In this document: piece by piece, positions 19,049 to 22,240 of the stretch | How positions within the stretch are numbered: position 1 is the stretch's first letter | How the letters are laid out: each line of letters begins with the position of its first letter | NCBI GenBank assembly: GCA_030603395.1 | Contig: JAUVXX010000001.1 | Location: 170,921-205,463, forward strand | Length of the DNA: 34,543 nt | DNA from: a bacterium | Lineage (GTDB): Bacteria; Patescibacteriota; Minisyncoccia; Minisyncoccales; CG1-02-41-26 | Reading direction: 5' to 3' | The notes under the pieces: model-generated | The model's database searches: none | What the model was told of the DNA's origin: nothing | Seen by the model: the letters and a program-made list of their open reading frames with translations, nothing else | Translations under genes and position numbers: made by a program

Positions 19049-19234
19049 TTATCCGATCAGCTTCTTTATTTTTTTGGCTAAGGGTTTGGAAATATGAACC
19101 CATTTGCGGGTCTGTCTAATTTTATTTCCCGATTTCTTTGCTCGGTAATGATCTTGAGCCGTAGCTCTTCTCATCACCTTACCCGTTTTGGTAATTTTAA
19201 ACCTCTTTTTTAGTGATTTTCTCGTTTTTGCCAT
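19049..19234 (-). CDS. rpmI: 50S ribosomal protein L35
   Basis: MAKTRKSLKKRFKITKTGKV.R.....H...KK; located between infC and rplT. Confidence 0.95.
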   Translation of the reverse strand: MAKTRKSLKKRFKITKTGKVMRRATAQDHYRAKKSGNKIRQTRKWVHISKPLAKKIKKLIG

Positions 19235-19748
19235 GTTGTTCTTTAGCAATAATCATGGTTAATCCTCTGCCCTCTCTTTTTAATTCTCTCTCAATTTTAA
19301 TGGGTACCGTTTCTTTCAGAACCTCCAAAAAGTGACTCATCTTTTGTCTGGAAAAATTGCTGAGGGCTTTTTCTCTTCCCCGAAGCACCATTTCAACTCT
19401 AACCCGGTAATCTTTTTTTAAGAATTTTTCGGCGCTTCTTGCTCGGGTTTCCAGATCGTGCTCTGAGATATTAAAACTCAACCTAACGTTTTTTAACTCA
19501 CCGGTCTTGGTTGCTCTCTGCTTCCTTTCTTTTTTACTCTCTCGGTAGAGATACTTTCCATAGTCCATTATTTTACAAATCGGAGGTTGCACTTTTTGAG
19601 TTATTAAAATAAGGTCCAATCCTGCTTCTTTGGCTTTTTGAATGGCTTCCGTCAAATCAAAAATCCCAAGTTGCTTGCCATTTGGGTCAATTACTCTTAC
19701 TTTGTCAGCCCTTATTTGGTTGTTGATAAATACTCTTTTTCGCAAAAT
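19197..19748 (-). CDS. infC: Translation initiation factor IF-3 (probable ATT start; in-frame TTG at 19745 is the alternative)
   Basis: IN.QIR...VRVID..G.QLG, PPICKIMDYGKY.Y, HDL and RGRE motifs. The longer ORF-track start lies inside the tmRNA. Confidence 0.93.
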   Translation of the reverse strand: MLRKRVFINNQIRADKVRVIDPNGKQLGIFDLTEAIQKAKEAGLDLILITQKVQPPICKIMDYGKYLYRESKKERKQRATKTGELKNVRLSFNISEHDLETRARSAEKFLKKDYRVRVEMVLRGREKALSNFSRQKMSHFLEVLKETVPIKIERELKREGRGLTMIIAKEQHGKNEKITKKEV

Positions 19749-19755
19749 TTTAACT

Positions 19756-20097
19756 TGGTGGAGGCGGAGGGGACGAACCCTCGTCCAGAAATTTTTCTGG
19801 AACAAATCTACAAGCTTAGTCCGCTTTGATTTAGGGTTTAAGGATAAAAAGTGGACGAAAAATTCTTAAACCCGAGCCCATAAAATTTGGCAATTATTTT
19901 GGGCAGGACAATTACCTATCTCGATTTATGACACCTCTTGCTGTCTATCGAGAATCAACAGGGAGATGGCGTTACGCTACTGCGTAAGCAGGTCTTGAGA
20001 ATAAGTTGTCACTTATTTCAGGTTCTGAAAGATTAACGAGATTCCAGAACTCGGCTTGCTCATTTCAGATTAAATTTCTGTCAAGTCTTTCACCCCC
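19756..20097 (-). ncRNA. ssrA: tmRNA, ~342 nt, one-piece
   Basis: Acceptor stem GGGGGUG/CGCCUCC-ACCA with G3:U pair, T-arm GAGGG/CCCUC, P2 CAGAAAUUU/AAAUUUCUG, pk1 CGAG/CUCG plus UUCUGGA/UUCAGAA; adjacent to smpB. Confidence 0.95.
19972..20010 (-). other. tmRNA tag reading frame (A)DNLFSRPAYAVA*
   Basis: Resume context AAUAAGU-GAC after pk1; hydrophobic Ala-rich C-terminus and UAA stop. Confidence 0.85.
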
Positions 20098-20539
20098 GTT
20101 TTTTTAACGCTCTTTCTATTTCTCTTTCAACTTCTCTTTTTTTGATTTTTTCTCTTTTGTCAAATTTCCTTTTGCCGCGGGCAATCCCGAACTCAAGCTT
20201 GATTTTACCCTTGTCAGTATACACCTTCAATGGCACCATCGTCAAGCCTTTTTGTCTGGCTTTACCAATCAAATGCTTGATTTCCGCCTTTTTTAAGAGG
20301 AGTTTTCGGCTTCTCTGAGGATTATAATCCTTGGGGGCATTTTTGGGCTGGTAGGGAGGAACGTTAGCGCCGAGTAAAAAAACTTCCTCTCCCTTGAGCA
20401 CCACAAAACTCCCCCTCAAAGTTATTCTGCCGGCTTTGATTGATTTTACTTCCTGGCCAATTAAAACAATTCCAGCTTTAAATTTCTCCAAAATCTGGTA
20501 GTTAAACAGAGCTTTTTTATTTTCAATTATAGTCGCCAT
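20090..20539 (-). CDS. smpB: SsrA-binding protein
   Basis: NKKA.F.Y.I.E...AGIVL.G.EVKS, R.RKLLL and GK...DKRE motifs. Confidence 0.97.
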   Translation of the reverse strand: MATIIENKKALFNYQILEKFKAGIVLIGQEVKSIKAGRITLRGSFVVLKGEEVFLLGANVPPYQPKNAPKDYNPQRSRKLLLKKAEIKHLIGKARQKGLTMVPLKVYTDKGKIKLEFGIARGKRKFDKREKIKKREVEREIERALKKRG

Positions 20540-20546
20540 CTCTTTA

Positions 20547-20571
20547 ATTCTAACAAAAAATACGGTAAACT
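20547..20571. promoter_or_regulatory. Back-to-back -10 boxes, each 7 nt from its start codon (leaderless smpB and argS)
   Basis: Minus strand TGT-TAGAAT-7nt-ATG; plus strand TAAACT-7nt-ATG; the intergenic gap is only 39 bp. Confidence 0.55.
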
Positions 20572-20578
20572 AAAACAT

Positions 20579-22240
20579 ATGATAAGGGATAAAATCAAAA
20601 AATTACTTAAAGAAATTACCGGCAAAGAGGCAAAAGTAGAACATCCAGAAGATACCAGGCACGGCGACTACTCAACTAATATAGCTATGAGGACTGGACT
20701 TGACGCTAAGGAAATTGTGAAAAAGATTGAAAATAATCCCATGTTTGAAAAAGTTGAGGTAGCACCACCTGGTTTTATTAACTTTTGGATTGATAAAAAG
20801 GAGCTTGAGAGATTATTTTTAGAGCTTATAGAAAGGGGTCCAAAAATATTTCAGAAAAAGCCAGAAAAGAAAGAAACCATAGTTATTGAGTATTCCTCCC
20901 CTAATATTGCCAAACCCCTGGGCGTTCATCATCTCCGCTCAACTATTATTGGCCAGGCCTTAGTTAATATTTTAAGATTTATCGGGCACAAAGTAGTTTC
21001 TTTAAGCTTTCCGGGCGATTGGGGGACCCAATTCGGCTTTTTAATTGCTGCTTTCAAACGTTGGGGTAACCGGGAAAAATTGAGGAGGAATCCGATTCCC
21101 GAAATGCTTGATCTCTATGTTCGTTTCTCGCAGGCAGCTAAAAAAGATCCAAAACTTATTGAGGAAGGAAGAGAAGAATTTAAGAAACTGGAAGAAGGGG
21201 ATAGGGAGAACAGAAAAATTTGGAAATGGTTTTTAGAAGAATCGTTGGAAGATTTTAATCAGGTCTATAAGCTTCTTGGTGTCAAGATTGAGCATACCAT
21301 TGGTGAGAGTTTTTACGAGCCTGAACTCAAACCCTTAGTTAAAGATGCTTTAAAGCGAGATGTTGCTAAACGAGGGAGAGATGGTTCAATTGTCATTCAA
21401 ATTCCTGGCAGTCCCACCCCAGAGATTATCCAAAAATCAGACGGAGCAACCATCTATACCACCCGAGAATTAGCAGCTATTCGCCATCGTTTAAAGAAGT
21501 GGAGAGCCACCAAAATTCTTTATGTAGCCGCCAATCAACAAACATTTCATCTCAAACAGGTTTTTGGTACTGCTCAACGCCTTGGCATTGCTAAGTTAGA
21601 ACAGTTAGGTCATGTAAAATTCGGGATGATGCTGACCTCTGGTGGGAAGAAATTTGCTACTCGTGAGGGTCGCTTGATCCCCTTAAAAGAGGTTTTAGCA
21701 GAGGCAATTCAGAGAGCTAAGAAAATTGTTGATGAATTGAATCCATCCTTACCCGAAGAATTAAAAGAAAGCATTGCCCGGGATGTTGGAGTAGGAGCAG
21801 TGAAGTTTTTTGACCTTTCCCACAACCGCTTAGTAGACATTATTTTTGATTGGGATAAGATGTTGAATCTTAAGGGTTTCTCCGCTCCCTATATTCAATA
21901 TACTCACGCTCGTCTCTCCAGTATTTTGAGAAAAGCTAAATTTAGAAACAAAAGAAACCCTCGCTTAACTATCTCTCACCCTTTAGAAAAAGAGATTATG
22001 GTGGTAGTTCTTCGGTTTGGCGAGATTGTTCGAGATGCAGGAGAAACTTATTTCCCAAATAAATTAGCCAATTACCTTTACGAATTAGCCAACACCTTAA
22101 ACGTTTTCTACGAGACCCTGCCAGTACTTAAAGCTAAAAATAAGGAGCGAGAATCTCGTTTAAATCTTGTTTTTGGAGCAAAAGAAATTTTAAAAACTGG
22201 TCTAAATCTTCTTGGTATTTCCGCTCCGGAAAAAATGTAA
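20579..22240 (+). CDS. argS: Arginine--tRNA ligase
   Basis: HGDYSTN, PGFINF, EYSSPNIAKP, GDWGTQFG, KSDG..Y, PYIQY.HAR..SI and C-terminal PEKM motifs. Confidence 0.97.
   Translation: MIRDKIKKLLKEITGKEAKVEHPEDTRHGDYSTNIAMRTGLDAKEIVKKIENNPMFEKVEVAPPGFINFWIDKKELERLFLELIERGPKIFQKKPEKKETIVIEYSSPNIAKPLGVHHLRSTIIGQALVNILRFIGHKVVSLSFPGDWGTQFGFLIAAFKRWGNREKLRRNPIPEMLDLYVRFSQAAKKDPKLIEEGREEFKKLEEGDRENRKIWKWFLEESLEDFNQVYKLLGVKIEHTIGESFYEPELKPLVKDALKRDVAKRGRDGSIVIQIPGSPTPEIIQKSDGATIYTTRELAAIRHRLKKWRATKILYVAANQQTFHLKQVFGTAQRLGIAKLEQLGHVKFGMMLTSGGKKFATREGRLIPLKEVLAEAIQRAKKIVDELNPSLPEELKESIARDVGVGAVKFFDLSHNRLVDIIFDWDKMLNLKGFSAPYIQYTHARLSSILRKAKFRNKRNPRLTISHPLEKEIMVVVLRFGEIVRDAGETYFPNKLANYLYELANTLNVFYETLPVLKAKNKERESRLNLVFGAKEILKTGLNLLGISAPEKM

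Follow-up and report, generated by a model that had tools for sequence, protein, structure and literature searches.

Overlap of smpB with the tmRNA gene, and a candidate promoter inside smpB, in an order of Patescibacteriota

Structure of the smpB/ssrA junction

We analysed a window of 34,543 nucleotides from a bacterium of the order Minisyncoccales (phylum Patescibacteriota; assembly GCA_030603395.1, contig JAUVXX010000001.1). The host genome has a size of 678 kb and is 98% complete. The positions given below are those of the window, that is, of the whole stretch of DNA that was analysed. Three features make up the junction:

20090..20539, minus strand: smpB including its TGA stop, 149 aa (open reading frame, PF01668 match and phmmer)
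19756..20097, minus strand: ssrA (tmRNA), with the CCA end encoded (Rfam RF00023, acceptor stem)
20090..20097, minus strand: smpB/ssrA overlap of 8 nt (sequence, open reading frame and Rfam match)

The product of smpB matches the SmpB profile PF01668 over profile positions 1–143 with 175.3 bits against a cut-off of 27 (E 2.9e-52; G000:C3:191019-191450), and phmmer linked it to the upstream open reading frame of every relative examined (E 1e-48 to 1e-94). Its closest relatives, with 65–92% identity, are labelled as Patescibacteria, Parcubacteria, Nealsonbacteria, Paceibacterales or Minisyncoccales, and the assignment of the window to the CPR seems reasonable. The tmRNA scores 127.6 bits over the full Rfam model RF00023 (positions 1–374; E 8.4e-50), for which the gathering score is 47. 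In the Rfam alignment the acceptor stem has 7 bp, in which GGGGGUG pairs with CGCCUCC, a G3:U pair included, followed by ACCA; the T-arm is aligned as well. Because of this 7-bp stem, the tmRNA 5′ end was placed at 20097.

The 3′ end of smpB reads AAA AAA CGG GGG TGA, and the protein ends in ALKKRG. Since CGG occupies positions 20098-20096, GGG 20095-20093 and TGA 20092-20090, nucleotides 1–8 of the tmRNA consist of the final GG of CGG followed by GGG and TGA, and the smpB stop is tmRNA nt 6–8. The first-pass annotation had proposed that smpB ends in the acceptor strand of the tmRNA, with G1 (20097) in the middle of the CGG codon, and the coordinates of the open reading frame and of the Rfam match bear this out. 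Thus, both genes lie on the same strand with smpB upstream, and the stop is inside the mature tmRNA sequence, which is the layout known from Carsonella.

We also considered whether the overlap could be an artefact, either because the tmRNA 5′ end is misplaced or because UGA is a sense codon. ARAGORN called no tRNA or tmRNA in the window, and the tmRNA call rests on Rfam; in addition, UGA is recoded in some CPR lineages. However, the full-length Rfam match with its 7-bp stem, G3:U pair and ACCA argues against an artefact, and 57 relatives whose tmRNA exceeds the gathering score have the identical boundary. The genome encodes an RF2-type release factor of 311 aa with an SPF motif, TGA ends 63 of its 283 long open reading frames, and the length of SmpB equals that of relatives ending in TAA. 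The artefact reading is contradicted by these observations, and we regard it as extremely improbable. UGA is a genuine stop in the host genome.

The basic C-terminal tail is required for SmpB function. In the window it is intact (...GKRKFDKREKIKKREVEREIERALKKRG), and D-K-R and the following columns are conserved across the 58 relatives. The residues R148 and G149 sit past the conserved tail, where alignment columns 255–257 are variable in the same 58 relatives.

Candidate promoters and the downstream infC gene

The first-pass annotation had stated that no intergenic space is left for a separate ssrA promoter. It is true that there is no such room, but a separate promoter is not thereby lacking, for a promoter-like element lies within the codons of smpB, where it is marked by constraint on synonymous sites and recurs in 55 of the 58 relatives examined within the order:

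20216..20245, minus strand: P2, candidate ssrA promoter, with -35 TTGACG (20245-20240), an 18-nt spacer and -10 TATACT (20221-20216) (consensus scan and conservation)

The two hexamers of P2 match the sigma-70 consensus at 10 of 12 positions, and the -10 ends 118 nt ahead of tmRNA G1. The scan of 19400-21200 returned 4 promoter-like sites against 3.4 in shuffled sequences, which is no excess; what speaks for P2 is its conservation and not the consensus scan. Another site of this kind (TTGAAG-17-TAAAAT, 20230-20202) recurs in few relatives only and was set aside.

We determined how often the motif TTGACN-18-TATAcT occurs at the same codons of smpB (codons 99–109, the GLTxVPLxxYT segment). Besides the 55 of 58 genomes in the order, it is found elsewhere in the phylum in 32 of 56 smpB genes that lie at most 300 nt upstream of ssrA. 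Among smpB genes not adjacent to ssrA it occurs in 2 of 69 (65 such genes were listed, of which 60 were taken in and 5 left out); adjacent and non-adjacent genes sit in different clades, so that 55/58 and 2/69 do not count independent events. The choice of synonymous codons is fixed at the hexamer positions only. The Leu codon of the motif is TTG in 55 of 56 cases, compared with 163 of 799 Leu codons elsewhere in these genes. The Tyr codon is TAT in 56 of 57 (background 185/275), the Thr codon ACT in 42 of 43 (background 53/178), and where the residue is Asn the codon is AAT in 10 of 10. The sixth base of the -35, which is the third base of a Thr codon and the weakest -35 position, drifts (ACT 28, ACG 22, ACA 4, ACC 3).

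Sigma-70-like sites were also found within 200 nt upstream of 9 of the 49 tRNA genes of the genome, with 0.052 expected per 200 nt, and in four cases they end 9–15 nt before the tRNA. Such sites ahead of tRNA genes suggest that the host plausibly uses this consensus. Judged from conservation, P2 embedded in smpB probably makes most of the tmRNA, and it probably drives infC-rpmI-rplT too. Judged by titles and abstracts, the literature holds nothing on an ssrA promoter internal to smpB. P2 would show cleanly how, in streamlined genomes, a coding sequence can serve as a promoter too, and it cautions that absent intergenic space is no proof of co-transcription.

The outer parts of the locus are a candidate promoter of smpB and the gene for initiation factor IF3:

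20547..20555, minus strand: P1, candidate smpB promoter, an extended -10 TGTTAGAAT that ends 7 nt before the ATG (20539) (sequence and relatives)
19197..19748, minus strand: infC (IF3), starting at ATT 19748 or TTG 19745 (open reading frame; rpmI and rplT come next)

The pattern TGnTAnnnT stands 5–8 nt ahead of the smpB start in 27 of the 58 relatives, compared with 39 of 1896 for all ATG triplets of the same loci. As the -10 of P1 is only 7 nt from the ATG, this suggests that the smpB mRNA is leaderless or nearly so. The start codons of smpB and of the divergent argS are separated by 39 nt (20540-20578), and at least one of the two promoters must therefore sit within the coding sequence of the neighbour.

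On the other side, infC starts 7–10 nt past the CCA of the tmRNA, a distance too short for either a promoter or a Shine-Dalgarno sequence. IF3 homology follows ssrA directly in all 58 genomes of the order, at a distance of 30 nt or less in about 40 of them (positions extrapolated). We found no terminator-like site on the minus strand across 19400-21200. The encoded CCA is missing in many relatives. In these, the 5′ end of the infC mRNA would arise when the tmRNA is processed at its 3′ end, in the manner of punctuation. Operons that contain tRNAs or are punctuated by them are known from the mitochondrial punctuation model and from secG-leuU in E. coli. As in these, a cut by RNase P or by 3′ processing would separate the messages, here those of smpB, tmRNA and infC. 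The difference is that the element here is a tmRNA, that the upstream message would lose its stop and that an infC leader of about 7–10 nt is left.

The overlap in related genomes

We assessed how widely the overlap occurs. In the sample of the window's order, all 61 genomes had a tmRNA match, and 58 loci were examined; G007, G028 and G059 were without a usable tmRNA locus and were left out. Three of the 58 are uncertain: the tmRNA of L058 scores under the gathering score, Ns lie upstream in L057, and the contig end cuts the locus in L056. A set of 80 related loci (L250-L329) served for taxonomy only. It turned out that smpB is located directly upstream of ssrA on the same strand in all 58 genomes, 27 of which have the smpB stop within the tmRNA gene. 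The overlap is -8 in 18 genomes and -18 in four, and sizes of -30, -28, -21, -11 and -1 occur once each. The remaining 31 loci show no overlap, with a gap of 0–20 nt in 11 and of 23–372 nt in 20. The spacing in the order is a continuum from -30 to +372 nt.

For the phylum as a whole, 141 genomes were searched, 124 had a tmRNA match, and in 62 of these the retrieved flank contained smpB, upstream and in the same orientation. Only one of these 62 adjacent pairs from the rest of the phylum overlaps (-12). The smpB/ssrA overlap is a speciality of the window's order.

In many genomes the tmRNA starts with GGGG(G/A)UGA, whether or not smpB overlaps it, which indicates that smpB makes use of a UGA that was already there. 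In the sister genome of the same genus (G001), the acceptor stem reads GGGGACG, U6 of the tmRNA is changed, and the smpB reading frame extends to -21. This run-on fits the idea that the stop is whichever in-frame stop comes first.

To follow the overlap in evolution, we used a maximum-likelihood tree of SmpB and IF3 (58 rows, quick search). The presence or absence of overlap changes at least 16 times on this tree; shuffled labels gave a mean of 19.6, and 29 of 500 shuffles were equally low. The strongly supported branches by themselves force four changes. Well-supported sisters disagree with each other (-8 and +372, -18 and +118, -8 and +194), and the window's own clade has the overlap in 6 of 6 genomes. 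The exact -8 state was seen in at least eight families of the order, and the -8 overlap may be ancestral and often lost. The overall pattern is that of a boundary which is tolerated and drifts, and not that of a guarded device. The first-pass annotation had left conservation of the overlap to a survey of relatives, and the result is divided: the overlap is common in the order, but it is scattered on the tree and nearly confined to that order.

We consider it probable that the smpB/ssrA/infC block reflects a tolerated cost of tight packing, which would be at most a constant tax on the yield of SmpB and no tuned homeostat. Several points speak against this reading. The exact -8 state in at least eight families could mean long ancestral retention, hence some benefit. 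The overlap clusters in a single order, and packing alone explains this only if the order is more compact; the listed genome sizes (rounded) are 0.3–1.0 Mb in the order and 0.5–2.1 Mb in the phylum sample. Finally, the evidence for P2 is comparative, and its contrast between adjacent and non-adjacent genes is not one of independent events.

An overlap of smpB and ssrA has been described in Candidatus Carsonella ruddii, an insect symbiont (Mao et al. 2009, via Hudson, Lau & Williams 2014, Front Microbiol 5:421, PMC4131195). According to the latter paper, the idea of a non-stop smpB mRNA has already been published for Carsonella, and the overlap is reported nowhere else and is called unique. Carsonella and the window's organism both have tiny genomes with the stop of smpB inside the tmRNA. 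In the same paper, Carsonella SmpB is described as lacking the normal C-terminal tail, its extension being random sequence. In contrast, the SmpB tail with D-K-R is intact here, and the tmRNA supplies only two variable residues and the stop; 27 of the 58 genomes examined show the overlap here, in a CPR order that is free-standing; and a conserved promoter in smpB and an abutting infC are added. Hudson et al. also surveyed overlaps between coding sequences and t(m)RNA genes in general, at a time before CPR genomes. In that survey 250 cases were counted, about 1 in 15000 mRNAs, mostly from few events in close relatives. These overlaps resemble the present one in that an upstream coding sequence on the same strand has its stop inside a tRNA-like gene processed by RNase P. 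The text seen of a 2025 paper on a tmRNA database (PMC11915505) makes no mention of overlap or of CPR, and the literature on tmRNA or SmpB in Patescibacteria/CPR, judged by titles and abstracts, holds nothing on this layout. What appears to be new is the prevalence of the overlap in a CPR order, combined with an SmpB tail that is intact, a promoter within smpB and an infC close behind ssrA. Going by Hudson et al., Carsonella had until now been the only natural example in print of an smpB message that brings about the loss of its own stop. The frequency of the overlap in a large CPR order offers many natural pairs with and without it, in which the effect of the layout can be tested.

Fate of the smpB message and readings of the layout

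RNase P matures the 5′ end of tmRNA. Under the packing reading, smpB, ssrA and infC-rpmI-rplT would form one tightly packed, co-oriented block in which the spacer between smpB and ssrA shrank to zero in the order. With the spacer gone, smpB would read on into the tmRNA gene up to the earliest stop in its frame, a UGA at nt 6–8 that is widely conserved. Two promoters would serve the block, the extended -10 before the smpB ATG and P2 within smpB. Since there is no terminator before ssrA, each full smpB transcript would carry a tmRNA, and its stop should then be lost on 5′ maturation. P2 does not change this for smpB, as any RNA that includes the smpB stop also includes the 5′ strand of the tmRNA. 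The predicted RNase P cut falls between 20098 and 20097, one base into codon 148, so that the cleaved message would end ...AAA AAA C-3′ and be stop-less. The first-pass annotation had predicted such a message after a cut at G1, and this is supported by the geometry, by the lack of a terminator and by the presence of both RNase P components in the genome, the RNA (153.8 bits) and the protein rnpA (98.8 bits).

Ribosomes that reach the end before the RNase P cut would terminate at UGA. The 3′ strand of the acceptor stem is located about 330 nt downstream and the stem forms late, so early coupled ribosomes should terminate normally. Later ribosomes would run off the stop-less message, and existing SmpB-tmRNA would be expected to rescue them and add the tag (A)DNLFSRPAYAVA. 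Cleavage of the smpB mRNA, tagging of SmpB and the size of the effect are what we infer at this locus.

It is also conceivable that the overlap has no practical consequence, the smpB mRNA being translated before or without the RNase P cut, so that nearly all SmpB ends at UGA. Ribosomes might hold the acceptor stem open, long precursors might be poor substrates, or the message might decay first. The stem forms only once the whole tmRNA (~330 nt) has been transcribed, and coupled ribosomes get to the stop first. A likely leaderless mRNA and a weak-looking promoter suggest few ribosomes per message, and R148 and G149 are outside the conserved tail. However, RNase P processes tRNA-like domains of polycistronic transcripts efficiently in the bacteria that have been studied, and nothing in the sequence blocks such processing. 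We find this reading quite unlikely.

Trans-translation is nearly universal. To evaluate what happens to tagged SmpB, we looked at the tag and at the proteins that act with it:

19972..20010, minus strand: tmRNA tag frame, with resume codon GAC (tmRNA nt 88), the 12 codons DNLFSRPAYAVA and then TAA (Rfam alignment)

The tag frame is kept as ANLF..PA(Y/L)AxA in most of the 58 relatives, and its C-terminus ...PAYAVA is a typical hydrophobic degron. The genome gave three family matches for ClpP and encodes FtsH too. In this 98%-complete genome no ClpX is above the cut-off (best match 21.6 bits, cut-off 370), no RNB domain of RNase R was found, and Lon_C gave a weak match only. The usual partners of trans-translation seem reduced. 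We also searched the genome for ArfB and RqcH as routes of release that do not depend on tmRNA. No ArfB-sized protein with an RF-1 domain was found, the only RF-1-domain genes being RF2-like (311 aa) and RF1-like (243 aa), and RqcH was not found (NFACT_N 27.8 bits, under the cut-off of 31). Given the 98% completeness, a real absence of an ArfB/RqcH release route is likely. Trans-translation appears to be the sole rescue route encoded in this genome.

The arfA message is cut by RNase III at a hairpin to a non-stop form, and its product is then tagged and removed by trans-translation; the truncated ArfA retains activity and gets released if tmRNA fails. The resemblance to the present locus is that a rescue factor's own message would be made non-stop and its product tagged. 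Here, in contrast, the factor is SmpB itself, and tmRNA-independent release was not found, so that the switch half is missing.

The first-pass annotation had proposed a built-in homeostat, that is, a selected feedback in which the non-stop smpB mRNA made by RNase P lets SmpB-tmRNA tag and destroy new SmpB and so holds it at a set level. The geometry forces self-tagging of any ribosome that arrives after cleavage. The -8 layout recurs in 18 of 58 genomes from at least eight families, the tag with its degron-like end is conserved in relatives, and with ClpP and FtsH encoded, degradation of tagged SmpB is plausible from gene content. Moreover, the same logic has been proposed for Carsonella and is established for arfA (Garza-Sanchez et al. 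2011, as cited in PMC4131195). Against this, the overlap is nearly as scattered as shuffled labels (16 changes and a mean of 19.6, with 29/500 as low), close sisters have gaps of 118–372 nt, and 31 of the 58 relatives have no overlap. No ClpX was found above the cut-off and no RNase R domain was found. Since most tmRNA probably comes from P2, its output would not be tied to the smpB mRNA. With neither an ArfB-sized RF-1 protein nor RqcH found, ribosomes would stay stalled on the non-stop message when SmpB is scarce; the loop would only subtract and could not restore. For the same reason, the expectation that near-full-length SmpB accumulates when tagging is limiting is not supported. The lack of a release route and the evolutionary lability of the overlap make a homeostat unlikely, and the proposal is not upheld by our analysis.

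Another idea is that termination at UGA and the RNase P cut compete, and that the outcome sets the level of SmpB. Self-tagged SmpB would be destroyed, which would trim SmpB to the amount of tmRNA made from P2, and the layout would be ancestral in the order. We find this improbable as well. To our knowledge, how SmpB is matched to tmRNA in cells is poorly understood. If true, it would be the first example in nature of a rescue system that controls stoichiometry by placing a tax on its own protein subunit, and it would be set in a CPR order that appears to be without ArfB, RqcH and RNase R.

Some further observations concern the translation factors and the tmRNA itself. The RF1-type factor (G000:C7, L061 1186-1917; 243 aa) has a PKT motif and GGQ, starts directly after rpmE and apparently is missing its N-terminal domain. 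The resume codon of the tag (20008-20010) is GAC (Asp) in the window, GAG (Glu) in the sister genome G001 and GCN (Ala) in nearly all other relatives.

We also examined nine RNA runs, all of them assembled contigs. Only one shared sequence words with the stretch (share 0.08); four were compared, and none covers 20081-20700. Run X3 contributes 36 nt, which match the 3′ end of the tmRNA. Run X1 contains one contig of 349 nt, which is the tmRNA of a close relative and corresponds to 19774-20080 with 8 differences. This contig joins tmRNA nt 231–324 to nt 18–260 through 12 foreign letters, that is, it goes back by 307. The back-joint is probably an assembly artefact from stem repeats; a permuted or circular tmRNA would be the alternative.
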